From Vairimorpha necatrix (lineage: Eukaryota): DNA of 64,000 nt. A model generated the notes under the pieces. The model was not told the origin of the DNA. It worked only from the letters and a program-made list of their open reading frames with translations, and did not search any database. Shown piece after piece: positions 10,936 through 62,840 of the stretch (the first letter of the stretch is position 1; each line of letters starts with the position of its first letter). A program made the position numbers and the translations under genes. Location of the stretch: NCBI GenBank assembly GCA_036630325.1, contig CP142734.1, positions 930,001 through 994,000 on the forward strand. The letters are read 5' to 3'.

Positions 10936-13575
10936 ATGTTCTTTTGGAATGAAAATGAGGAAACTTCTAAAGAGACGGAACGTAAAAAAGAAGAGGAAAA
11001 AAAGAAGGAAGAAAAAGCAAATTTGAATGAAGAAGAAAGAAGAGAAGCTCAGGATAAAGCAAGAAAACGGGAAGATGAAAGGAGAAAAGCCGAAGATGTA
11101 GCTAGAACGAAGGAAGATGAATGGAGAGAGGCAAGTAATGAAGCAAGAAAACTCAAAGAAGATAAAAGGAAAGCAGATGAAGAAGCAAAAAAACAGCAAA
11201 AACTAAAAGAAAAAGCAGATTTAGAAGCGAAATTGCAACTGGAAAAACAGCAAGCAGCTGATATAGAAGCAAAGTTGCAGCTAGAAAAACAACAAAAAGC
11301 CGACGAAGAAGCTAAAAAACAAGCTGAAGAAAAACAAAAAGCCGACGAAGAAGCTAAAAAACAAGCTGAAGAAAAACAAAAAGCCGACGATGATGCTAAA
11401 AAACAAGCTGAAGAAAAACGAAAGGCAGAAGAGGAAGCTAAAAAACAAGCTGAAGCAAAACAAAAGGCAGACGAAGAAGCAAGAAAACAAGCTGAAGAAA
11501 AACAAAAAGCCGACGAAGAAGCTAAAAAACAAGCTGAAGAAAAACAAAAAGCCGACGAAGAGGCTAAAAAACAAGCTGAAGAAAAACAAAAAGCTGACGA
11601 AGAAGCCAAAAATCAACAAGAAAAGCAGCGGGCAGCAGACAAGGAAGCAAAAAAACAAGTTGAAGAAAAACAAAAGGCGGACGAAGAAGCCAAACGCCAA
11701 CAAGAAAAGCAACAAAAATCAGTTGAAGAAGCTACAAAGCAATCTGAAGCGAAACAAAAGGCAGACGAAGAAGCAAGAAAACAAGCTGAAGAAAAACGAA
11801 AGGTAGATGAAGAAGCCAAAAAACAAGCTGAAGCAAAAAAAAAGGCAGACGAAGAAGCAAGAAAACAAGCAGAGGAAAAACAAAAGGCGGACGAAGAAGC
11901 CAAACGCCAACAAGAAAAGCAACAAAAATCAGTTGAAGAAGCAAAAAAACAATCCGAAGCAAAAGAAAAGGCGGACGAAGAAGCCAAAAAACAAGCAGAT
12001 GAAAAACAAAAGGCAGACGAAGAAGCTAAAAATCAACAAGAAAAGCAACAAAAAGCAGACGAGGAAGCCAAAAATCAAAGAGAAAAACAACAGGCCGCTG
12101 ACGAAGAAGCTAAAAAACAAGCAGGAGAAAAACAGAAGGCAGATGAAGAAGCCAAAAATCAACAAGAAAAGCAACAAAAGGCAGATGAAGAAGCCAAAAT
12201 TAAAGAAACTGAAAAGTTAAAAGCAGATGCTAATGCGAATATAAAGGAAACTGAAAAGATCAAAGCAGATGAAGAAGTCAAGAGAAAAGAAGAAGAAAAA
12301 CAAAAAGCAGACGAGGAAGTAAAAAAACATGAAGATACTAAAGATAAAGCGAGCGAAGGAATAGATAATGTAGAAAAATATAATTTCGCAGAGGATAATG
12401 AGGATAGACTAGCCACTAAGAAATCTTTGGGGATCTTTTGTTTTATCAAGTTACTTGCGTCCCCGCCCATTATTGTATCAACTTTTTCATTGACGCACAT
12501 ATTACGAAAGGTTTCCTTGTTGCATTTATTTATTTCCATTTTCATTTTCTCGCTCCATTACATCTTTTCATATTGGTTGATTGATAAAATAATGGAGGGA
12601 GAAGATTCCAAAGAGTCCTCATACGGTTCCCTTGATGTAGATGGAGGAATATTTTCTCTATTGGTGAATTTATTTCTTGTTTTCGTGAAATTTATAACGT
12701 GCCTCTTTTTTATTGATATGTTATTAGAAACATTTTATGCTTCATTTGGCATAAAATTGGGCAACGTTGACTCCGGTCTTTGGAAGTATCTCATTATGCT
12801 GTTTATTGCTTTTGTCTTTTACATGTTTTATTCACTGTACAGAAGATATAAGTTCCTTGAGATAGTTTTCGATTCTTCTTTAGTCTTTGTCAGTTTTTTA
12901 TTGGCTGCTTTAGTAGCATTTAATAAAGAAGGCTCTGTTAGCATAAAAGACAGCTCAGGAGAGGCGTCTTTATGGACTACTAGTTTTTTCCTTATTTTTT
13001 CCTTCGTCTCTTTTTCTTTTGAAGTCACTTCTTGTTCTATTTCTATTTATGGTCCATCTAAATCCGGGTTGTTTCTAATATCCTTGCTTTCTATAGGTGC
13101 CTTATCTCTGTTTATGGGATTCTTCTTGTATTTTTCCAGCTGGCTTTGGGATATGAAATTAAGTGAGATAGTCTCGACTTTGTCCTCTAAAAATGCTACC
13201 TTATATTTTATTTGCCTTAGTGTTTACTCTTTCTTTGGTTTTTTACTGAATATGAATTCCTTAAGTAATTCCTTTGCAGATTTTTCTTCTGGGGTTATTA
13301 GGCCCAACAATCTGCTAGGCCTTTTGGTTTTAGGCTTTTTGGTCTTTTCTATTGTGTTTTTAGTAGTCTGGGGCGAGATTGGTAAATTTTTATGGATTAG
13401 TACCATGATAATTTTCATAGGCCTTCCTTTGTATTCGATGTTTCCTTATGTGACATTTATTTCTAAAAAGGGATTTAGTTTTGTATCCATGATTTGTGTT
13501 TTAGTTCTGTCATTATTTTTTGTTCTTTCTGTTTTACATTATAGCATTTTAGATCCCGTACATTTCCCCACATAA
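10936..13575 (+). CDS. 879-aa protein: K/E/Q/A-rich 14-aa repeat helix fused to a multi-pass (about 10-11 TM) membrane domain
   Basis: Long open frame; repeats of KQAEEKQKADEEAK; C-terminal ~380 aa strongly hydrophobic. Confidence 0.85.
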   Translation: MFFWNENEETSKETERKKEEEKKKEEKANLNEEERREAQDKARKREDERRKAEDVARTKEDEWREASNEARKLKEDKRKADEEAKKQQKLKEKADLEAKLQLEKQQAADIEAKLQLEKQQKADEEAKKQAEEKQKADEEAKKQAEEKQKADDDAKKQAEEKRKAEEEAKKQAEAKQKADEEARKQAEEKQKADEEAKKQAEEKQKADEEAKKQAEEKQKADEEAKNQQEKQRAADKEAKKQVEEKQKADEEAKRQQEKQQKSVEEATKQSEAKQKADEEARKQAEEKRKVDEEAKKQAEAKKKADEEARKQAEEKQKADEEAKRQQEKQQKSVEEAKKQSEAKEKADEEAKKQADEKQKADEEAKNQQEKQQKADEEAKNQREKQQAADEEAKKQAGEKQKADEEAKNQQEKQQKADEEAKIKETEKLKADANANIKETEKIKADEEVKRKEEEKQKADEEVKKHEDTKDKASEGIDNVEKYNFAEDNEDRLATKKSLGIFCFIKLLASPPIIVSTFSLTHILRKVSLLHLFISIFIFSLHYIFSYWLIDKIMEGEDSKESSYGSLDVDGGIFSLLVNLFLVFVKFITCLFFIDMLLETFYASFGIKLGNVDSGLWKYLIMLFIAFVFYMFYSLYRRYKFLEIVFDSSLVFVSFLLAALVAFNKEGSVSIKDSSGEASLWTTSFFLIFSFVSFSFEVTSCSISIYGPSKSGLFLISLLSIGALSLFMGFFLYFSSWLWDMKLSEIVSTLSSKNATLYFICLSVYSFFGFLLNMNSLSNSFADFSSGVIRPNNLLGLLVLGFLVFSIVFLVVWGEIGKFLWISTMIIFIGLPLYSMFPYVTFISKKGFSFVSMICVLVLSLFFVLSVLHYSILDPVHFPT
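11284..12200 (+). repeat. Coding 42-bp tandem repeat (KQAEEKQKADEEAK)n
   Basis: About 20 degenerate copies of AAACAAGCTGAAGAAAAACAAAAAGCCGACGAAGAAGCTAAA. Confidence 0.9.
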
Positions 13576-15918: not shown

Positions 15919-16632
15919 TTAGAAAGTTTCTGCCTCAACTGTCATTGGGTGTCTCTCTTCTCTTGCTTTCTTAACTGTCTTTACTTTTATTACGCAGCAA
16001 TTCTGCAAAGGATAAATTGCACTACCAGCTTTCTCAATATTTTTACCAATAACTTCTTGAGATAATTTCTTCATAATTTTACTAATATCTTGATCTTTTA
16101 ATTCTTCTTCAATAATGTCAAACATTACTTTACGAATCCTCTTCTCGTCACTGCTCTTACAGTAAACCCTCTTAGAAGTACAAGCAGGTGTTTTCTTAGT
16201 AACCGCATTAACAAAAACTCTCAAAATTGCACCATCTTTAGTGACAATATCCTTTTCAGCCTCAATGAGAGTATGCCATTTACGGACTATCCCTTTAATC
16301 TTATCACTGGTCATATGCATACCATCAAATACACCAATACAATCTTTTCCACGAACTTCATTTACTCGGAATGAAAACTTTCTGGCGTGTTCTTCCAAAT
16401 TGCCAGTCAAATCGGCTTGATTAACTTCGAATTTTCTACCAATAAGAAGTGTAGACAAATCTTGTTTATTACTTGTTCTTGTGGCCATAGTCTTGCCGCA
16501 GACATTGTTAGGAAATACGGAAGGGGCTTTAAGATTGTACCACTCTTTCTTAGTGAAATTGTCTATTTTTTGGTTCTTTTTTGAGCCCTTTTTGTTTGCT
16601 TTAGCGTAACTTCCTGGTGGTTGAATGGCCAT
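15919..16632 (-). CDS. RPS3A: 40S ribosomal protein eS1 (S3a)
   Basis: [42 protein letters not shown]; true ATG at 16632 follows an ACCCC motif. Confidence 0.96.
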
Positions 16633-16795: not shown

Positions 16796-16878
16796 GGTAA
16801 CGTGGCCGAGCGGTTAAGGCGGTGGACTTAAGATCCATTTATCATATGATAGCGTGGGTTCGATCCCCACCGTTACCA
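16796..16878 (+). tRNA. tRNA-Leu (anticodon UAA)
   Basis: Acceptor stem GGTAACG/CGTTACC+A; D-arm TGGCCGAGCGGTTAAGGC; anticodon loop CTTAAGA; long variable arm; T-loop GGTTCGATCC. Confidence 0.95.
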
Positions 16879-25243: not shown

Positions 25244-28200
25244 TGTTATATATTTAGATATTTTGACCCCTCATTATGATAAATAAATACATGGGGCCCA
25301 GCCTAATGATGAGTTGACAAGAGTTGACTGTGGACAAGAGTTCAGAAATCGTAGTGAGTTTGAGAGGATAATGCATGAGTTAAGATTAGAGCAAATGGAA
25401 GAAGGATTATGGAAGAGAGAAGTCTACAGAAGAGGAAGTGAAGATTTGAAAAATTTTATTGTTTTGAATGTTCCGATTGAAGGAGGAGTCGAAGAAATAA
25501 GAAAAAAGTTGATTACAGAGAAAGAAAGGAAGAAAATGAAAGTGAGAAAGGAAGAAGAGATAAGGAACATGACATTAATGATTACGGAAACAGTTAAGAA
25601 AGCTATGGAAGCGGAAAGTGCAGAAAGAACTAGATTTAAGAGAAAACTTTTTAGATGTTATGAGTGTGGGCGAACAGGACATATTAGTAGAAATTGCCAA
25701 TATAATAGGTTTAATAAATGGATTCAAGTATTTAGTTTTTAAAAGGTCAGCGATAGATCATGAAGAATGTTTAAGTGAGGATAATTATAAGAAGGGTAAA
25801 AAAGAGCAGGAAGAGAAGAGAAGCAGAAGGATTATAGATGCGAGTGTTGAATATATGGGATTAGATGGATTGAGAAGGAAGTATCATGAGGTATTTTCGG
25901 ACGAAGAGGAGGAAATTAAATATTGTAAGTTGGAAAAATACCGAATTAAAACCGAAGAGGGAAAGGTCGTAAAGAAGAAAGGACAAATGGTTGAACAAGC
26001 GCTTATTGCGGATACAGTAGAACATATTAAGATTTTAGAAAGAAGGAAAATAGTTAGAAGATCAATATCGGAATGGCGGAATCCAGTAAGGGCGCTTAGG
26101 AAGCCAAATGGAAAGATAAGACTGGTAAATAACTTAATGGCTTTAAATGATATAGTTGATAAGGATCCATATGAATTGGCACGAATTAGAGATGTAATGC
26201 GGGGAACGCAGGGATCAAGGTTTTTTACTGTGATGGATATTAAAGACAATTTTTACCACATTGAGATTTGCGAAGAGGATAAGCATAAAATAGCTTTTGA
26301 ATTCAATGGGAGAGTTTACGAGTGGAATAGTATGGTAATGGGGTTTAAGAATTCGCCCCAAATATTACAAAGAACAATGAATACGATTTTTGACGACCTG
26401 TTAGGAGAAGGAGTAGAGGTGTATATGGATGATGTAGTAATTCACGCAAAAACGAAAAGAAAGCACGATGAGCTGGAAAGAAGTTTTAAAACGATTTAAG
26501 AAAAATAATATGAAAATAAATATCAGCAAGATACAATACTGTAAAAAAGAAGTAAAGCTATTAGGGGTGACACTGAATGAAGAGGATTCACAGGCGTGCG
26601 AAATTAAAAAGAATGAGGCTTTAGAATACCCAGCACCAGCAAATGTATCAGAATTAAGAAGATTTTTGGGATTAACTGAATGGTTTAGAAATTTTATTAA
26701 AGATTTGCAAAGTTGACATACCATTTAACAAATGCGCTTAAGGGAAATGGGAATAACTTTAAGTGGATGGAGGAAATGCAAAAAGAGTTTGAAAGTATGA
26801 AAGAATGTTTAAGAAATTTGAAAAGTTTAAAGATAACTGATTATAGTAAAGAATTTTTGCCGAGAACAGATGCGAGCAACGTTGGCATGAGAGCTGTGTT
26901 TTTGCAGAGAAACGGATTGAATGAGTGGGTTCCGGTACAGTTGGCTTCAAAAAAGTTTACGCCAACGGAAAGAAGATACGCTATATCAGAAAAAGAAATG
27001 TACGCAGTATTCTGGGGAATTAAAAAGTTTGAATACGAACTCAGAGGAAGAAAATTTAAGATTGAGACAGACTATAAAGCTTTGAGTGAAATTAGGAATA
27101 AGGCAAATTTTAATAATGATAAGATCAATAGGTGGATAGAGAAGATACAAGAATTTGACTTTACGATAGAATACAGAAAACCGGAGATAATGGTTGTTGC
27201 AGATTCATTGAGCCGCATATATACAAAGAAGATAGTAAGAAGAAACAGATGTAAGAACGTGCAATTAAGCAACAGGAAGGTATGTGGAATAAGCATGTAA
27301 TCGTAGAGAATGGTTTGAATTATTGGAAATTTGATGATAATAAAATGGCGCAAATCCCTGAAGAAAAAGACAGGCTTAAATTGATAGAGAAATATCATGA
27401 ATTGAAAGGACATAGAAGTATGATAAGTGTGTATTACGAGATGAAAAGCAAATATTATTGGCCTTGGATGAAAAAGGATATAGAAGCCGAACTTAGTAAA
27501 TATTAGGTGTGTCAGATTAATAATAGAAAGAAATCCGGGGATGTGATTTTGTAGCAACAAGCCGATATTTAGAAAAGGTAGCATTGGATTTGGTTGAGTA
27601 TAGAGAAGAAAAAAAATACATCGTTGTAGCTATCGACTATTTTACGAGAAGAGTTTGGAGCAGAGTAATTGACGCTAAGGCAGGTAGAAGATTGTTGCAT
27701 TTGTTAAAGAAATGTGTGTCCAGGGGAAGAAGCCCGAAGAAATAATTACGAACAACGGTAAGGAGTTCGTTAACGAAAGGTTTAGACACCTAAGTAAAGT
27801 TCTAAGTATTGAGCACAGGAAAGTAAATACAGAAGCTCATAGGAGCAATAGAAGAGTTGAGAGGGTTATTGGAACGTTGAGGGAGAGTATAGCCAAATCG
27901 AAGGTAAAACATCCGAGGAAAGAGTGATGAAGAGCATAGAGATTTATAATTAAAGTTTCCATAGTGGAATAAAATGTACGCCGGTAGAGGCTGTTCAAGA
28001 TACATCGGGAAAGATAATGATTGAAAACGGAGCTGAAGGAACATACGCGAAGAGATTTGTTGCAAGGAAAAGAGAAAAGTTTTATAGAAATCAGATTGTC
28101 CGTGTTGCGAAAAAAGAAAATTTAGGAGGTCAGACCAAGTATATGAAAGGAAGATTTGTTGATTTGGGAATGATATTAGAAGTATGCCCCAGTGACTTGT

Positions 28201-28352
28201 ATATTGTTAGGCTTGAAAACGGAAGGATAATTAAGAAGAGGCCATATGATTTAAAAGATATAGAGAGGTGGGAGTAAAGTGAGACTAACCGTCTGGAGGG
28301 GGGATGTTATATATTTAGATATTTTGACCCCTCATTACGATAAATAAATACA
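25244..28352 (+). mobile_element. Ty3/Gypsy LTR retrotransposon with 48-bp LTRs (frameshifted)
   Basis: LTRs TG..CA at 25244-25291 and 28305-28352 (1 mismatch); TSD TCAGC; PBS TGGGGCCCAGCC; PPT GGAGGGGGGA; order gag-RT-RNaseH-integrase. Confidence 0.95.
25291..28277 (+). pseudogene. gag-pol remnant: CCHC knuckle, RT (YMDD), RNase H, integrase
   Basis: CYECGRTGHISRNC; MGFKNSPQILQR..VYMDD; TDASNVG, SEKE, ADSLSR; H...GH..C zinc region; NGKEF..VER; several frameshifts and stops; no DTG protease motif seen. Confidence 0.9.
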
Positions 28353-28658
28353 TCAGCTTTATATTCCTCCTAAGCAACTATAAAAGTTTATTAATCGCTT
28401 GTCAATTTTATTCATAGATTTATAGTTGCGATACGCTTCATAGATATTTGCAAAGTTACTATATTGTGTTTTACTGTATTATCGTTTGAAAAAAAAAAAT
28501 TTAATGATTATTTATTGATAAAATTACATATATTTTGTTGCGATAATATTTTCTTCATGCCAAAATAATACTATTTATGTTTCCATTTTTTTGCTATTAT
28601 ATTTTACAATTTTTACAATTGTAGTAACTTATTTTTTCACTCTTTATATTATTTTCTC

Positions 28659-30870: not shown

Positions 30871-31776
30871 ATGTTTCAATATTTTTTATTGGTTTTTAGT
30901 ACTAGTCTAGAAAACAGTGAAAATAATTTACTGAGAATAAAAAGGAGTCCGACAAAAGACAAACTTGATAGTCTACATGAAAAAAATAACGAACATTATA
31001 AAACAAAAGCTGAATCTTTTAAGAAAGGATTCTTTCCATATGAAAGAATAACAGATGCAAAAAGTAAAAAATCTATAAAGAAAACGCAAAAGAATAAACT
31101 TCAATTGCTAAAAAATTATGTATTTAATCTACGACAACTTAATTCGATGTTAAATGTAGCAGCAGAAAATATTGATCCATATAGTATTCGTTTACTACGT
31201 TTTGATGAACTTTTGCACGAGTGGGAAAATGAGAAATTGGCAACGAAATTTGATCAAATTGAAATCAAGCTAACCGAAGAACAATACGATGTTTTTAAAA
31301 AAAACTACTACTATTGCATAAACTGGTTATGTAATTATCGACTTATTTTACAAAATTATTTGCCAAAGAGTAAAATAGAAATAGCGCAATCTTCAATGGG
31401 AGAAGACTATAAACAATTAATAATAGCATCTATGAATTCAATAGAACGAGCTATGAGATATTATGAAAAATTAAATCCCAAAAACATAACATACAAATAT
31501 CATCATAAAGAAATGATATTTTATGGTACCTTGCTAAGTGAAAGATTCCCATATTTGTTTAATCATTTCGATTTGGGTGGTAGATTTATAAACATGTATG
31601 AACTGATAATAAAACAGTTCAAAAAAATAGACGAGAATGATGATAACATGATTACAACATTATACATGATGCCAAAAAAAATAACATTCTTAATAAAACA
31701 TGTCGCTACGTATCTAGAGAATACCAGAAAAAAACTAATTTGTTTGAGAACAAAAATTAATAAAGTAATTTATTAA
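30871..31776 (+). CDS. Putative secreted protein, family B copy 1 (301 aa)
   Basis: MFQYFLLVFSTS signal-like N-terminus; CCC motif; paralogous to 40934-41824 (SIERAM.YY.KLN, ER.PYLF.HFDLGG.FI). Confidence 0.82.
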   Translation: MFQYFLLVFSTSLENSENNLLRIKRSPTKDKLDSLHEKNNEHYKTKAESFKKGFFPYERITDAKSKKSIKKTQKNKLQLLKNYVFNLRQLNSMLNVAAENIDPYSIRLLRFDELLHEWENEKLATKFDQIEIKLTEEQYDVFKKNYYYCINWLCNYRLILQNYLPKSKIEIAQSSMGEDYKQLIIASMNSIERAMRYYEKLNPKNITYKYHHKEMIFYGTLLSERFPYLFNHFDLGGRFINMYELIIKQFKKIDENDDNMITTLYMMPKKITFLIKHVATYLENTRKKLICLRTKINKVIY

Positions 31777-40933: not shown

Positions 40934-41824
40934 ATGTTGCAATATTTTTTATTAGTTTTTGGTACTAGTTTAGGAAACAGTGAAAATGAAATACTGAGAT
41001 TGTGGGGGAGTCAGACAAAAGATGAACTTGAAAATCTACATGAAAAAAACAATGAACAGCATAAAGTCATTAGTAATTCTTTTAAGAAAAGGTATTCTCC
41101 TTATAAAATTAAAACGGAGATATCAAGTAAAATATCTCCTGAAGAAAACCCAAGAAAGAACATGAAGTCGCTAAGAAGATATGTTAATAAAATTAAGCAA
41201 TATAATCATGAGTTGAATGTTCAAAATCGAAAGTTCGATACTTATGGTCATCGTTTAATAAGGTTTTATGAGCTTTTGCGCGAGTGGGAAGATGAAAATT
41301 TAGTAACTAAAAGTCATCCTATAGAAATTGAACTAAGCGAAGAACAACGGAATAGTTATAGAAAAAAAGACAAATTTTGCTGTGAATGGTCGCTTGTTTT
41401 TATGAGTATATTGCAAGATTATTTGCCGAGGTGTAAAGATAAGATAAGAAAATCATCAATGGAAGACGAAAATAAACAATTAGTTATATTTACAATAAAT
41501 TCAATAGAAAGAGCTATGGAATATTATAAAAAATTAAATCGTAAAAATATAAGATATAAAACCCGTTATTACGAAAAAATATTTTATGGTAATTTGATAA
41601 GCGAAAGATTGCCATATTTATTTGATCATTTCGATTTAGGCGGAATGTTTATAGAAGTTTATGAGCTGATAATAGAACAATTCGAAAAAAATGGCGACAA
41701 GGATGATGATACGATTATAACATTAAGAGATATGGCCGAAAAAATAACTAGATTAATAAAATATGCTCGCGAATATTTAGAAAAAACCGAAGAGAAACTT
41801 AATTTGCTTGAGAACCAGAAATAA
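40934..41824 (+). CDS. Putative secreted protein, family B copy 2 (296 aa)
   Basis: MLQYFLLVFGTS N-terminus; upstream TTACCCCTTTT as in copy 1; collinear with 30871-31776. Confidence 0.82.
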   Translation: MLQYFLLVFGTSLGNSENEILRLWGSQTKDELENLHEKNNEQHKVISNSFKKRYSPYKIKTEISSKISPEENPRKNMKSLRRYVNKIKQYNHELNVQNRKFDTYGHRLIRFYELLREWEDENLVTKSHPIEIELSEEQRNSYRKKDKFCCEWSLVFMSILQDYLPRCKDKIRKSSMEDENKQLVIFTINSIERAMEYYKKLNRKNIRYKTRYYEKIFYGNLISERLPYLFDHFDLGGMFIEVYELIIEQFEKNGDKDDDTIITLRDMAEKITRLIKYAREYLEKTEEKLNLLENQK

Positions 41825-45421: not shown

Positions 45422-45718
45422 TTTACAGGGGTTGGAAAAAAGCGAATTGTAGCATTCAATTGTAATAATTTTGCATAATTGTTTTATCTCAACTTAAAAT
45501 TGCCTAGCACTTGTTTACAATACATTACAAATGGAACTTATACAAATACGCTTTAGAATATATTTTTTGATCTTTTCTGGCTTGACGTTTTTAGTAGCTC
45601 TTGATTCTTTAGACACTTTTGTCTTCCGGCAAACCTACGCTGATCATAATAATTTCCCAATATAAAGATTTTCGGCAAAAAACAAATGAAATGTTTGACA
45701 TGTTTTTGGTATACAAAC

Positions 45719-48145
45719 TGTGGACTGATGGTTTCCCATCAGTCATAGAAGAATGTTTTAAACTATAATTTTTATTGTTCTTCATCTTCATACCCCAAGG
45801 GTATGATTTTCTTTTATATTTATAGGCGGGAAAATATTGTACATTTTCCCTCCATAAACATAGTTTGGTAAAGGAGGAGAATACTTATAGAATAGTATTC
45901 TCTAGTCTCCAGGGTAATCTTAGGACCACTGGAGATCTGTCACTTGACACTCCCCCCTTCTTTAGAGGCTCCTAGGTTACCATTTGTTGACGCGTCTTCA
46001 AGTACTTCCAGTTAATAGCGGATGCGTCATTATTTAGGCTATATACTTTATAGACTCCCTCTATTCCAACCGTAGGGATAGTATATGACTTTTTCATTTT
46101 GTCAATTCCTTTCTTCTGAATGCTTATCGGTGGTTTTCGCTTTCGTACTACGTCCCGAACTCTATGAACACTTAATTTCACATTGTCTTTAACTTTTTCC
46201 TTTTCATTTCTTGGTTTCTTCCGCGAGTAAGCGATAGATGTATAACGAAGTATTTCTTTTTCGTCGGAGTCTTTCCGCCATCCATTTATCATTTTAATAG
46301 ATCTAAATTGTCTATTTATAAACTCCGGCAGCATACTGCCCCTGTAAATTTTTTTCCTCCTTTTTTTGTGAGGTATATGTTCTCTGCCTTTCCCCCAGGT
46401 ATTTAGATGTAGGTATTTTAACTCCAATTCAAAGTTTGTAAATACGGGTGGATCATGTAATTTTTGTATTAAAGGATGTGGGTAAAACTCTTTTTTTTTA
46501 CTTCTGTTAAGTTTTCCCTTGTCATTACAAATTACCATGTCACTGAAAGATGCTTTGATTGGAACGACCGGGAGAGTAAAGGTCGATACAGTTTCTTCCT
46601 CTCCAGTTTTACTCAAAAGCACTTTGGGCTTGACTCTTATCGCTTCCCTTTGACCTAATGGTCTCCTATGTTGGATGCACTTAAATTCCGGACAATCCTT
46701 TAGCTCATCTATAACATTGCTACTACTAAAGCTTAAGTTTTGGTCTTTAATATGGAAAGCCTTCGAATGTACTATGGCAAGTTTATAACTTTTTTCTTTT
46801 CCTTCTTGAAAGTAATTTTCTTTTACAATGTCTGTTAGATGTGTTTCGGATATTTTTCCCGTTGTGCAGACAGATTTCGTTGTTATAGCGCCATCTATTT
46901 TATCAAACCTTTTGAGCAGATTTAGTTTCTTGGCATCTACTATGCCAATTATAAAGTCTTCCGGTAATTTATCTATTACGTAAGCCTCGATCATTTCATT
47001 TTTCTTGATCTTGGGCCTCTTTATAAAGACTTGTATTTTTCCTCCTGATTTGACCTGGCCCCCTATTCCTTCAACCGTAAGAGTTTCTTTTGTTGGTTTT
47101 AATTTCAGTTTTTGAATCATTGTTTTACTAATGAGATTCACTTGAGATCCGGTATCAATAAGAGCGGAAAATTTTATCGTTCCCGAATATAGATTTATCC
47201 TCGGGCGGATATCTTGTAGTTTAGTAGTCGATTTCATTTCTCCTATCCTTAAAAGCATGGCAGAATTTACTTGTTCTGCCTTTTCTCCACAAATTTTATT
47301 ATCTTTTTTTTCTCGTGAGATAGCTTCATAAGATGGTTTTCTACTAAATGTTTTCTTTTTGTTTAAATGATAATTTATAAGAGTTTGTTTGTTCTCAACT
47401 AATTCCAGCAATTCCAACCAATCTTTCGTTTCTTCAATAGGCTCCTTCAACTTATCAGGGGAGTTCCTTCCTATAGAAATCTTTGATCTGGCAAAATATT
47501 CAGGGTTTCCTTTTGCATATCTTTTGAGGTCATAAGCGTAACTTAAAATGTCGCTTTCCTTTGGACCTTCCACATATAGATGCATGAACCTATCTGCTAT
47601 ATCTTCTGTTAGTTTCTCTTTTAAATACTTTTTTTTAAACTGGGTTTTGAATGAATCATAGTCTGTAATTTCATCACCCTCGAACGCTTTGAACCATGTT
47701 AACGCCTTGCCTTTAAGTTTAGATTTGGCAATATCTAGCGTTTTATCTTGCGTATACACATCCTCAATTTCGCGGAACTGAGTTAAAAAATCTTCGGCTT
47801 GTTTTAAAGTTTCGCCGTTAAATTCTGTCCACCTATTGCTCAGACATATTTTTTTCATGTGCGTGATGAGACTATTAAAGTGATCGTTCAAATCCTCTTC
47901 ACCGTTACCACCAATGTGGACTGATGGTTTCCCATCAGTCCGAGAAGAATGTTTTAAACTATAATTTTTATTGTTCTTCATCTTCATACCCCAAGGGTAT
48001 GATTTTCTTTTATATTTATAGGCGGGAAAATATTGTACATTTTCCCTCCATAAACATAGTTTGGTAAAGGAGGAGAATACTTATAGAATAGTATTCTCTA
48101 GTCTCCAGGGTAATCTTAGGACCACTGGAGATCTGTCACTTGACA
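45719..48145 (-). mobile_element. Non-autonomous LTR retrotransposon with 231-bp LTRs and a single gag-protease ORF
   Basis: LTRs at 45719-45949 and 47915-48145 differ at about 2 nt; TSD CAAAC; PBS 47900-47913 matches tRNA-Leu(UAA)+CCA; PPT AAGAAGGGGGGAG. Confidence 0.96.
45972..47987 (-). CDS. Gag - aspartic protease - degenerate RT polyprotein (671 aa)
   Basis: F.GE..QAEDFL..F and LKGKALTWF gag motifs; ALIDTGSQVNLI..FIIG protease; RT-like S.F..PVVPIK..C.D..KLN..K..YP.P; no YxDD, RNase H or integrase. Confidence 0.88.
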   Translation of the reverse strand: MKMKNNKNYSLKHSSRTDGKPSVHIGGNGEEDLNDHFNSLITHMKKICLSNRWTEFNGETLKQAEDFLTQFREIEDVYTQDKTLDIAKSKLKGKALTWFKAFEGDEITDYDSFKTQFKKKYLKEKLTEDIADRFMHLYVEGPKESDILSYAYDLKRYAKGNPEYFARSKISIGRNSPDKLKEPIEETKDWLELLELVENKQTLINYHLNKKKTFSRKPSYEAISREKKDNKICGEKAEQVNSAMLLRIGEMKSTTKLQDIRPRINLYSGTIKFSALIDTGSQVNLISKTMIQKLKLKPTKETLTVEGIGGQVKSGGKIQVFIKRPKIKKNEMIEAYVIDKLPEDFIIGIVDAKKLNLLKRFDKIDGAITTKSVCTTGKISETHLTDIVKENYFQEGKEKSYKLAIVHSKAFHIKDQNLSFSSSNVIDELKDCPEFKCIQHRRPLGQREAIRVKPKVLLSKTGEEETVSTFTLPVVPIKASFSDMVICNDKGKLNRSKKKEFYPHPLIQKLHDPPVFTNFELELKYLHLNTWGKGREHIPHKKRRKKIYRGSMLPEFINRQFRSIKMINGWRKDSDEKEILRYTSIAYSRKKPRNEKEKVKDNVKLSVHRVRDVVRKRKPPISIQKKGIDKMKKSYTIPTVGIEGVYKVYSLNNDASAINWKYLKTRQQMVT

Positions 48146-48263
48146 CAAACAATTATTAATAAATTTGTGTTCTACAGGTTTTATTCTCTTTATTTTTGCA
48201 AAAATGGTAAATTTCGACGGGTATTAAGAATGAGTTTAACAAATATCAAGAAGTGTAAATGAA

Positions 48264-59075: not shown

Positions 59076-60277
59076 ATACTTTAAGTAAAAGTTTTATTTA
59101 ATATTATGTGTTTGTGTTTGAAAGAGTATTTTATCAAATTTTATATTGTTTTATAAATGCATTTTCAATTTTTTGTTATTATTAGCTTTTTGCTTCTAAA
59201 CACTTATTTTAATAATGTTGATTTTAAATACTTTCGCACTAATATGTATTTATTACAATATATTTTATATATTTCGTAAAGTTTTCTACGCAAATTATTT
59301 GTAAAAATACATATATTTCATTCTCATACAGTTTCACTAATCTAAAAAAACATCGTGGTATGCACATAACGTCTCTAGTTTTATTTGTAAACCAATTCAT
59401 CTCATCCTTATCAAATTCAATTATTTTTAGGGTATTATGACAATTTATTTATTGGTTTTTATTGTACGACGAATAGCTTTTGCCTATTTAAATTCAAAGT
59501 TTCAATATAAAACAAAGCGTGACAGTTCAGCTTGACTCTTATGTAAACTTTGTATTTTCCTAATATTTAACTTAAAATATTTCCAGGAGTTTTAGATTCT
59601 AAATAAACTTTTGAGACATTTTTATAATTAATAACAATTTATTAATTAAGCTTTTTAAAATATTTTCAAAAACTTATTGATAACAATCAAAATTTTTTAT
59701 GGATTTTTGAAGTATTTAATACATTCCTATGATCATATATCATCATCTAATATAAAAAGAAAAATATTAAAGTTAGAGTGGGGGTGTTGACAACTTTATT
59801 GTGTTGGCATGACAATCAGCTTAGAAAGGATCGTCTTATAATATCTTTGTGATATTTTACGCTAAGATGATTTATTATTATTGACTTAACGTTAAATTTA
59901 TTATACATAAATAGTTATTCAAAGATTCTTATTATTTTTTTTCATTTTTGAACAAACAAAACATGTTTTAAAAATTTTCACGTATAGACGTTTTACTGTA
60001 TATTGATTGCATATTAGTATCTTAATCGTTCTTTAACCCTTTCAAAAAAAATTTAAAATTCTTGAATACACATAAAGCAAAAAATATACTTCAACCACTT
60101 TACTTTACAATCGTAAATTATAATAATTTTTCTTATTTTATACTGTAAATCTAATTGCGCATTATTCCGTAAGGAATAATCGCTTTTTCCTGCGTATTCT
60201 TCAGAATGATCTCAAGAATAACTTTCGATTATTTTTTTTTAATATACTCTATCTTGTAGCAAATATACAATTAGTAA

Positions 60278-60508
60278 TGTCAAGTGAAAAATCTCACGTG
60301 GACCTAAGATTACCCCGGAGACTAGAAAATACTATTATAAGTATTCTCCTTCTTTTGCCAATTATGTTTATGGAGGAAAAATGTGTAATATTTTTACGCC
60401 TTTAAACATATAATAAATTCATCAAGAGAGGCATGAAGATGAATAGAAATAATAAATGTTTTAAGTACAAACCGTCTTCTCGGACTGAGGGAGAACCATC
60501 AGTCCACA
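60278..60508 (+). mobile_element. Solo LTR related to the 45719-48145 element
   Basis: 231 bp, TGTCAAGTGA..CAGTCCACA; TSD AGTAA at 60273-60277 and 60509-60513. Confidence 0.92.
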
Positions 60509-62840
60509 AGTAATGTTGTTCTTTAATGTAATATCAATAAATCAAGGCTATATATCGAATTAATATCGCTTATTAATTTTCCTATTTTGGCATTTACTTT
60601 TTTGTTGAAACCACCAATTGTTTGATGCTACTAACAAATTTATATTAATCATTGTATTATATCAATGCCATTTTCATTATAAAATTACTTTCATCTAGAA
60701 ATACAATAATCCTGTGAATGAACTAATTCAAATCTAGAATTTGAAACAATATAACCCGATTTTTAATGTCATATAAATCGATAATCGGAAGTTAAAGGTA
60801 AATACTGACAATTATAGAACAATTAAGATAGTTGTTCATAACTTATAAAGCCTAAAATTTAGACTTAAATAAACACGTATAAATAATTGAGACAGAATAA
60901 TTAAAAAGTATTAAATACATGAAAAATATAAAAATTTTAATTTTACGAATAGCTTTTTGTTATTTGACACTCTCATGTATAGTCTAGATATTAAAAATAC
61001 TACTTCCAAATTTATAATTCGATAAGAGTTTTCGTCTTGTTTTCGAGGTATTTTTTGTGTTGTTTTAAACGTTATTTATTGTTACTGTTCTTTAAATTCT
61101 CGATAACTGCTCTTTTTATATGTAATCGTGATATTTTTGCGAAATGGTGCCATTTTTATTCTCATTTTTAATCTCATAAAAAAAAAATTTAAATATTAAT
61201 TATAGAGGTAATTTGCATTAATAAAGTTATTGGGATTATATACTTTATCGTATCTATACTAAAACTTAAAATTCTCAGTAAATTTTAACTTTCATTTAAG
61301 AATAAAATAAACATTTAAAAAAATATGTAAACATCATATCATCAATGTTTAATAAAATTGTGCGATGTGTGCGTCTAATGTTTTATTATCTTGTTTTACT
61401 ATTTACCACATTCAATACAGTACATAAAGTCTTAATTATATTGTTTTTTATCCGTATAATGATTTTTAAAATTCATATACTATGGTGTGTGTCTCTAATT
61501 ATTCTATATGATATTTCAGTCTTTATTATGCCTATTTTTTAAATATATTATAGAGAATACATTTTGTATCTATGTTATAATAATACAACTAAGATGCCTT
61601 AATTTCTTATATATAATGTTAAAATTGCCTATATTAATGACAAAAATGTTTTCTTATGGTCCTTTTTATTTTTACAAATATCTCTTATTAAAATCACTTT
61701 ATTATACACTTTGCCCCCGTAATTCTTAAAATTCCTTTATGTTCTACTAGTCATCAAATTTTCTGATTGGTTTCTGCGATTTTTCTTTTTGGTCGGCATT
61801 GGCAGCATATAATGTTTAAATAATGAGAGAAATAAAGTCTTTGTTTTACATTTACAAAAATATTATGCACTATCACCATGCCTATTATGTATGTTATATA
61901 GTTAAGAAATCCTACAATATAAATGAGTTAAAAAATTTTGAAAGTGATTATAATAGACAATTATACTAATATTTTAATACAATCAGTGGAATAACGACCG
62001 TTTCAATTCTATTTTTATTGTATTATGTTTATCTTTCAGTGAAAATAAAAAAAAATTTACAATATATTGCATAACCAACAAATTTTAACTTTTATATCTT
62101 TCATGTAATTTGTACAAATCAAGCCTTTCCGAGAACTTTTACGTAAAATTTAATCAAGTCGATTTTTAAAATTTTTGCATGTTTTAATTCAAAAAAAATG
62201 TTATTTTTTATTTACCTGTTTTTACTTTCGTACTAAAACGCTGGTTGCCCATCTTTCTGGACTATATAAATGTTTTTCAAAGTCAAATTTAGATATTTAA
62301 CTGCATCTTTGAAGATTAGACGGTTAGAAGTTTTTAACAACTACTTTTTGATGTATTCGTTTGAATATTTTGATAAAACAAAGTACACTAATATTCTAAA
62401 TTGCATAGTTTTGAAATAATAACTGAACTCAAATTGTTGTTGCGTACAATTACAAGATGTAATATATCAATGAAAAAAGATTAATTTTATAATAGCAAGA
62501 ACTTTGCATTCTCATTTAATAAAGTTAAAAAATTTATTTAAATTAAAGATTTGTCGAGATAATCAATTCATCTTTTAAATTTTTTTTAATATTTATAAAT
62601 TTAGATTAAATTTTATATATACGTATTTTCTACCTTAAATTTTTATAAGACAACAAAATCTAAAAAATTTACACTGTTTATTTCAAAACTCTCAAATATT
62701 GCTATATTTTTTTTGATGTTGAAGTTTAAAAATAATTTAAACACATTTGTCTTTTTTAAAACCATTATTTTTCATAATATTTTGAAGTATATTACATTAT
62801 AACTTTACAAAAATGCTCATGTAATTTTTTTACATATACT

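Follow-up and report, generated by a model that had tools for sequence, protein, structure and literature searches.

Results

A recently inserted element with a single open reading frame

We analysed a stretch of 64,000 nucleotides from Vairimorpha necatrix (contig CP142734.1, positions 930,001 to 994,000 of the forward strand; below, the window, in whose own numbering all positions are given) and describe here a long terminal repeat (LTR) element lying between positions 45,719 and 48,145. The element is about 2.4 kb long and its coding sense is the minus strand. Besides two nearly identical LTRs it carries one open reading frame (ORF) for a Gag, a retropepsin-like protease and the first part of a reverse transcriptase (RT), followed by a basic tail; everything past motif A of the RT is missing. 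The features are listed below by position, with residues (aa) counted along the ORF.

45714-45718, target-site duplication, left copy, CAAAC (sequence; same as 48146-48150)
45719-45949, minus strand, 3' LTR, 231 bp, sense TGTCAAG...GTCCACA (direct repeat)
45950-45963, minus strand, putative polypurine tract, sense AAAGAAGGGGGGAG, adjoining the 3' LTR (sequence)
47987..45972, minus strand, single ORF (P0001), 671 codons plus stop: Gag, protease, RT remnant, basic tail
45975-46394, minus strand, C-terminal tail, aa 532-671 (basic; no significant match)
46395-46691, minus strand, RT remnant, aa 433-531, fingers to motif A (hhalign, RT profile)
46893-47210, minus strand, retropepsin protease, approx. 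aa 260-365, DTG at 278 and IIG at 346 (Pfam, AlphaFold2, Foldseek)
47343-47900, minus strand, capsid-like region of Gag, approx. aa 30-215 (Pfam Retrotrans_gag, helical model)
47900-47913, minus strand, primer-binding site TGGTGGTAACGGTG, 14 nt (complementary to the 3' end of tRNA-Leu(TAA) plus CCA)
47915-48145, minus strand, 5' LTR, 231 bp (direct repeat)
47967-47972, minus strand, AATAAA in the 5' LTR (motif reading)
47985-47987, minus strand, ATG of the ORF in the 5' LTR (sequence)
48009-48020, minus strand, TATA-like box in the 5' LTR (motif reading)
48146-48150, target-site duplication, right copy, CAAAC (sequence)

By repeat search and alignment the two LTRs were identical at 229 of 231 positions and had TG..CA ends; the sole difference lay in two adjacent bases at sense positions 204-205 (CG versus AT). 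CAAAC was present on both sides of the element. The near-identical LTRs and the perfect target-site duplication reported in a first-pass annotation of the sequence were thus both found, and the insertion is recent.

The primer-binding site lies 1 nt past the 5' LTR, within the ORF. It was the exact complement of the final 11 nt of a tRNA-Leu(TAA) gene with the added CCA, and the 14-mer occurred once in the window, against 0.01 occurrences expected. The gene, which likely encodes the primer tRNA of the element, is located in the window as well:

16796-16878, plus strand, tRNA-Leu(TAA) gene (ARAGORN; 3' end complementary to the primer-binding site)

Judged by its position and composition, AAAGAAGGGGGGAG would act as the polypurine tract. 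The TATA-like box and the AATAAA of the 5' LTR are putative promoter and poly(A) signals.

The ORF was uninterrupted over its 671 codons, in agreement with the first-pass annotation. It had also been said to fill the interior of the element; the interior was indeed covered, and in addition the frame extended into the 5' LTR, where it begins at sense position 159, approx. 30 nt past a TATAAATATAAA stretch and 15 nt ahead of AATAAA. From there it runs through the U5 part of the LTR and the primer-binding site and stops 21 nt upstream of the 3' LTR. Six relatives were aligned with the ORF product (P0002, P0003, P0005, P0011, P0019 and P0028; 22-33% identical), and in all six the same predicted start (M-K-K/M-L/K...) matched M1 of the ORF. 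An I-G-D/G motif common to the six (G-D in one) mapped onto those codons of the ORF that lie in the LTR end and the primer-binding site. Since all six relatives start there and share this motif, M1 rather than M44 is the likely start, and translation appears to begin inside the LTR. The Gag of Ty1 likewise starts in its LTR. As U5 and the primer-binding site encode a part of Gag that is conserved in these relatives, the primer-binding site would do double duty, in coding and in pairing with the tRNA.

LTRs with a target-site duplication, a primer-binding site and a polypurine tract are features of Ty3/gypsy-type elements, and so is the order of Gag, protease and then directly the RT remnant, with no integrase between. 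The complete RT, RNase H and DDE integrase of an autonomous Ty3/gypsy element were lacking.

Host genes derived from the gag-protease part of retrotransposons are known, with PEG10, RTL1 and Ddi1 as examples. That the present ORF is such a domesticated gene, no longer mobile, is hardly credible; the long intact ORF and the confident fold predicted for Gag and protease would fit, but the near-identical LTRs, the perfect duplication, the primer-binding site matching a tRNA and the polypurine tract mark a recent insertion.

Gag and protease

The Pfam family Retrotrans_gag matched aa 86-137 with 28.3 bits (cut-off 24.1). An AlphaFold2 model based on 53 homologues was all-helical over approx. aa 50-215, with values of the predicted local distance difference test (pLDDT) mostly above 90. 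A CCHC zinc knuckle was absent from the Gag of the element in a pattern search.

The protease was matched by Asp_protease_2 over aa 269-348 with 32.8 bits (cut-off 24.3), and the DTG claimed at the outset was present at aa 278. In the same model the region of approx. aa 260-365 had pLDDT values mostly above 90. When the full-length model was compared with the PDB by Foldseek, 26 matches were obtained at E values up to 0.001, comprising retropepsins and protease-RT polyproteins. The retropepsins included Ddi1, HIV-1, EIAV and a rickettsial enzyme, with TM scores to the target of 0.5-0.7; the fold matches to protease-RT polyproteins aligned 260-366 columns, but at a root-mean-square deviation of 20-29 Å.

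The RT remnant

A profile of nine RT segments matched aa 433-531 in hhalign with a probability of 94.9 and an E value of 4.7e-8. When all six frames were compared, the RT profile matched in the ORF's own frame only, at profile positions 13-115 of 320 and with 29.3 bits; the corresponding piece of a genuine microsporidian RT, that of a second Ty3/gypsy element in the window (25244-28353, see below), scored 63.1 bits. The motifs PVVPIK (aa 473), CNDKGKLN (487), YPHP (502) and VFTNFEL (515) were present. [YF]xDD was absent from the whole ORF in a pattern search, and Pfam gave no match to RVT_1, RNase H or rve in the ORF; aa 441-671, scanned alone at E values up to 10, returned no family. Both the motifs and the lack of [YF]xDD, RNase H and integrase had been described in the first-pass annotation, which had further counted about 300 aa as resembling RT. 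This last estimate held for the approx. 100 residues of aa 433-531 and not for aa 532-671, where no similarity above shuffled controls was detected. With phmmer no retroelement match was found among PDB sequences, and BLASTP against the other RT of the window gave a best E value of 1.4.

Ahead of the RT stretch lies a protease-RT linker, which full polyproteins match colinearly. In HMMER alignments, long polyproteins (P0013, P0030, P0031, P0058, P0060 and others) were colinear with the ORF product from the protease to aa 513-536, and the alignment of P0032 ran on to aa 569. When ten long polyproteins were compared by tblastn, eight matches spanned the protease and the RT N-terminus, all ending at aa 512-528 (positions 686-734 of the element), and P0038 matched the RT N-terminus separately (E 0.002), up to element coordinate 695, approx. 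aa 525. Nothing significant followed past these RT N-terminal matches in any frame.

Columns with at least 80% agreement among at least eight homologues were taken as conserved. The ORF product had kept 14 of the 25 such columns lying between aa 434 and 521 and departed from 11, which agrees with the heavy substitution noted earlier; after aa 531, 2 of 10 were kept. Nine columns within aa 463-520 were identical in 10 of 10 homologues, and five of these were changed (I463E, K479A, R485V, R491G and D520E). The last exchange replaces the catalytic Asp of motif A by Glu (E520). From polymerases in general, Asp-to-Glu at motif A is expected to inactivate RT. Lacking motifs B to E and with the Asp of motif A replaced, the stub could not polymerise.

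A possible source for such a truncated frame would be an internal deletion during reverse transcription of the RNA of an autonomous parent, whose machinery then integrated the product. The element would in that case be a one-off copy, dead on arrival and founding no self-sustaining lineage, with a frame that is open as the deletion was in-frame and the copy is young. In line with this, there is a single copy in the window, conservation drops at approx. aa 530 as at a breakpoint (from 14 of 25 columns to 2 of 10), and the stop 21 nt from the LTR, beside the polypurine tract, resembles a native end of pol. Many new LTR-element copies in wheat are described as possibly of this kind in the available text of PMC9744471. 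However, an RT piece taken from a working parent would not have Glu in motif A. Three invariant basic residues are lost, the score is under half of that of the genuine RT piece, and LTRs that are 99% identical leave no time for decay after insertion; moreover the tail matched no RNase H or integrase part of the ten polyproteins in any frame. We regard this origin as quite unlikely.

The basic tail and its open frame

The tail (aa 532-671) contains 28% Lys and Arg and 9% Asp and Glu, with an isoelectric point of 10.6 and a net charge of approx. +26. Comparisons with possible sources gave scores that shuffled sequences reached as well. When the tail was aligned locally with the remainder of RT by hhalign, 28 of 200 shuffles scored at least as high; against a trimmed C-terminal half of RT, this was the case for 10 of 100 shuffles in global and 39 of 100 in local mode. 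With tblastn no significant match of the tail was found in ten polyproteins in any frame. MAFFT aligned the tail with RT motifs B to E and the thumb, which was not significant, and two weak '...NNDAS' matches to the start of RNase H, not significant either, are leads only. A profile of the SH3-like C-terminal part of integrase, built from six sequences, gave the alignment that had been expected by eye but no significant match, 17 of 150 shuffles having reached its score. In the ESM Atlas the scores were 0.85 for aa 430-671 and 0.79 for aa 532-671, both within the range of shuffled proteins, and the clusters with a Pfam family were all of retroelement pol type.

Structure prediction on the C-terminal part, which the first-pass annotation had suggested, gave no confident fold, and the profile match was limited to aa 433-531. 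An AlphaFold2 model of aa 401-671 based on ten RT-bearing homologues had a mean pLDDT of 37; in the full-length model the values were 52-67 for aa 442-496 and below 50 for aa 497-671.

Within aa 532-671 no in-frame stop was present, compared with 12 and 12 in the two other sense frames and 10.5 predicted from composition. We concluded that the tail is coding, or very recently was. Under the AT bias of the genome approx. 7-8% of single substitutions in the tail would give a stop, and the chance of keeping the frame open under neutral drift was simulated for several values of K, the number of substitutions per site. The simulation is rough: indels are outside the model, the ancestor is taken to be the consensus, and neutrality is assumed for the whole tail over the same time as for the RT piece. 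The probabilities of no stop were as follows.

K = 0.05: 0.37 for aa 433-531, 0.062 for aa 401-671
K = 0.1: 0.155 for aa 433-531, 0.008 for aa 401-671
K = 0.2: 0.037 for aa 433-531, 0 of 1500 runs for aa 401-671

In the drift model a residue change of 37-49% needed a K of 0.2-0.3. Taken with the probabilities above, this favours selection, and it is plausible that selection keeps the tail open. The estimate is weakened by the possibility that the tail is an in-frame piece of parental pol and hence never drifted. The earlier proposal of selection on the tail is thus no more than suggested by the data: the absence of in-frame stops and the drift probability of 0.008 speak for it, but an in-frame deletion also leaves the frame open.

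In its general form this alternative holds that the tail itself is selected, either as translation to the 3' end aids the RNA (by stabilising it or because the nascent protein acts in cis) or as stub and tail have acquired a new protein role (nucleic-acid binding, nuclear targeting or docking of helper enzymes). To the stop counts and the drift probabilities can be added the low score of the RT piece (29.3 versus 63.1 bits) with 11 of 25 conserved columns changed, and a strongly basic tail in an element whose Gag has no zinc knuckle. A precedent exists in mouse, where the gag-pol fusion protein of IAP 1-delta-1 helps retrotransposition in cis, according to the available text of PMC6466679. Against it stands the single full copy in the window, which gives no ratio of nonsynonymous to synonymous substitution. 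The drift model presumes a whole tail that has long been neutral and an ancestor matching the consensus, an in-frame deletion (a chance of approx. 1 in 3) would open the frame at once, and by eye the other microsporidian RT of the window also departs from several of the 'conserved' columns. Neither a confident AlphaFold2 fold for aa 497-671 nor a Pfam family for aa 441-671 (E up to 10) was found. On balance we consider selection on the tail possible but doubtful.

A more specific proposal, that the dead RT fingers and the new basic tail of 140 residues are kept under selection as an adaptor, we consider unlikely. If it were true, the tail would replace the lost zinc knuckle in RNA binding, or dock the particle made of the element's own Gag and protease onto the helper enzymes, RT and integrase, and the stub would be a working part of the parasitism instead of a relic.

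Relatives and other copies

A HMMER scan of 1.84 billion representative proteins gave 59 matches, the best of them 33% identical, and the 10 best of the 59 (145-536 aa) covered Gag and/or protease only. A word-based protein search with the whole ORF among proteins of similar length returned nothing. One relative, P0002, is a JGI record named 'predicted aspartyl protease', present on two contigs of which the longest has 2735 nt. Another, P0038, is 'POL2 [Enterospora canceri]', a protein of 1343 aa from another microsporidian in which gag, protease, RVT_1, RNase H and rve are joined in a single ORF; it aligned with the ORF of the element at approx. 23% identity, the alignment beginning at aa 18 and taking in Gag, the protease and the RT N-terminus. 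Microsporidian Ty3/gypsy elements are described as encoding one polyprotein and not separate gag and pol in the available text of PMC4202319.

Copies in the window comprised the one full element and one diverged solo LTR:

60278-60508, plus strand, solo LTR of a related subfamily, approx. 79% identical (blastn, alignment)
60273-60277 and 60509-60513, target-site duplication of the solo LTR, AGTAA (sequence)

In the solo LTR the ATG is retained and the first 25 codons are open, with a 3-nt length difference from the full element that leaves the frame unchanged; no internal part was found nearby. A related solo LTR with its own duplication indicates that this group of elements has been active in the genome more than once.

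The 64-kb window contained no autonomous partner whose LTR ends and primer-binding site match those of the element. The other Ty3/gypsy element there is the following:

25244-28353, plus strand, second Ty3/gypsy element (unrelated, broken, unusually compact)

Its gag includes a CCHC knuckle and its RT a YMDD motif (RVT_1, 73.5 bits); pieces resembling RNase H and integrase are present too, and the whole is broken up into six or more ORF fragments. Its terminal direct repeats are 49 nt long, 98% identical and 3061 nt apart. No protease was seen in it, and it shared nothing with the gag-protease element.

Discussion

How the element may have moved

As the LTRs are identical at 229 of 231 positions, the duplication is perfect and the priming sites are intact, the defects of the element must predate its insertion, and it would then have been copied and integrated by enzymes that it does not encode. 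We infer this use of foreign enzymes from the sequence, and the inference is a tight one. In our view the element derives from a single-ORF Ty3/gypsy retrotransposon of microsporidia and is semi-autonomous, with a probability of roughly 0.7; most probably it moved while RT-defective, with the enzymes supplied in trans, and most likely it belongs to a lineage that moves in this manner. That the element makes Gag and protease and must borrow RT and integrase, as the first-pass annotation had proposed, gains inferential support from the loss of everything past motif A.

Transcription would start from the 5' LTR, and translation from the ATG inside the LTR would yield a polyprotein of approx. 78 kDa consisting of a capsid-like Gag, an intact-looking retropepsin, the dead RT fingers up to motif A and 140 basic residues. 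The RNA would carry what is needed in cis, i.e. the primer-binding site for tRNA-Leu(UAA), the polypurine tract and the LTR ends, and an autonomous relative elsewhere in the genome would provide RT, RNase H and integrase. Most simply, the tail would have inherited its open frame from the parent's single gag-pol ORF: given a single-ORF parent, an open gag-protease-stub frame is the default outcome of any in-frame deletion. A benefit of translating as far as the native-like stop by the polypurine tract may reinforce it. A new protein function is unnecessary to explain the observations.

Several points weigh against this reading. The lineage is deduced from one full copy in a 64-kb window, in which no autonomous partner is present and the other Ty3/gypsy element is unrelated and broken. 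No protein above 33% identity was found in the databases. Aa 532-671 matched no source with which they were compared. The assignments of promoter and poly(A) signals are motif readings only, and the presumed killing of RT by Asp-to-Glu draws on general knowledge of polymerases.

Taken together, the reading of a trans-mobilised gag-protease element is well supported, and the element most likely represents a known kind, found here in a host group that is unusual. Microsporidia serve as models for the extreme reduction of genomes, and even so Ty3/gypsy elements are numerous in some of them. An element that is young, lacks the enzymes and has kept capsid and protease would extend the division of labour between autonomous and semi-autonomous elements, as in cereals, to a eukaryote whose genome is very small. 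Should the tail prove to be selected, the element would offer a compact natural case for why non-autonomous LTR elements gain from translation, be it through a protein effect in cis, RNA protection or a new domain. Its present value lies in a clean annotation of the element and its primer tRNA and not in a new principle.

Comparison with known elements

The first-pass annotation had named the TR-GAG elements of plants as the analogue. These are short (<4 kb) non-autonomous LTR elements with a single ORF for gag only, as described in the available text of PMC4350172. The present element resembles them in being short and non-autonomous, with typical LTR-element features and a single ORF; as far as that description goes, it differs by its protease, its RT remnant and its non-plant host, and is thus not gag-only. 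Since its ORF carries a protease too, families with GAG and protease are closer, with the semi-autonomous GAG-Pro elements of wheat, and not TR-GAG, as the nearest known counterpart. In the available text of PMC9744471, the Gypsy families RLG_Sabrina_SA and RLG_WHAM have GAG plus protease as their only ORF and no RT or integrase; they are thought to supply Gag, to rely on the autonomous partner RLG_Wilma and to co-evolve with it. The likeness lies in a gypsy-type LTR element with an intact ORF for Gag and protease from which RT and integrase are absent. As described there, the wheat elements are 6.6-8.3 kb long, exist in thousands of copies and have a named partner, whereas the microsporidian element is 2.4 kb long and was seen once in a 64-kb window. 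Unlike the wheat ORFs in that description, the microsporidian ORF starts inside the LTR and continues through an RT remnant and a basic tail nearly to the polypurine tract.

The polyprotein P0038 of Enterospora canceri likewise combines gag and pol in one polyprotein with the same domain order. It has complete RVT_1, RNase H and rve as well as a CCHC-like knuckle region, whereas the likeness of our element to it stops at RT motif A.

A further comparison can be made with the mouse element IAP 1-delta-1, for which Saito et al. 2008 is said to be the original paper. According to the available text of PMC6466679, it needs gag and pol in trans, and its gag-pol fusion protein favours its own retrotransposition in cis. 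As described there, IAP 1-delta-1 has been left by an internal deletion with one ORF, which encodes a fusion protein, and the microsporidian element is comparable in this. IAP 1-delta-1 is a tested precedent for keeping a frame translated, whereas the microsporidian case is known from its sequence; the mouse element also differs in being a mammalian endogenous retrovirus with another deletion, of parts of gag and pol.

In the open-licence literature of PubMed Central and bioRxiv we found no description of a microsporidian element of the gag-protease kind. The words 'non-autonomous' and 'nonautonomous' were absent from the available text of PMC4202319, whose supplements, with consensus sequences of microsporidian elements, lay outside this check.

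Other features of the window

The window is AT-rich, with a G+C content of 23-35% per 2 kb, and its genes are compact and apparently intron-less. A ribosomal protein gene was identified by comparison with the PDB:

15919-16632, minus strand, eS1 ribosomal protein (PDB 6rm3 chain SB0, all 237 residues, 522.9 bits)

The next eS1 matches after 6rm3 were those of other microsporidian ribosomes (7qep, 6zu5). As 6rm3 is the ribosome of Vairimorpha necatrix, this places the DNA in a microsporidian, probably of that species or very close to it.

Four further observations were made. A 316-aa ORF at 543-1493 (minus strand) has an ISXO2-like (IS1595-type) DDE transposase domain (49.8 bits), so that the gene of a DNA transposon sits here in the genome of a eukaryotic parasite. 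At 8108-9838 (plus strand) a 576-aa ORF with internal 'NENGIK/NEHDSK' repeats and poly-N had a weak match to a SWIM zinc finger, slightly under the cut-off, and is possibly a relic of a MULE-type transposase. The 879-aa ORF at 10936-13575 (plus strand) begins with approx. 430 residues of a long K/E/A/Q-rich repeat ('ADEEAKKQAEEKQK...'); the rest is hydrophobic and looks multi-membrane-spanning, and no Pfam family was matched. Finally, 30871-31776 and 40934-41824 (both plus strand) are a pair of paralogous ORFs of approx. 300 aa each with 10 kb between them. They matched no Pfam family and share a similar hydrophobic start (M-F/L-QYFLLVF-S/G-TSL), and they may belong to a secreted, lineage-specific family.

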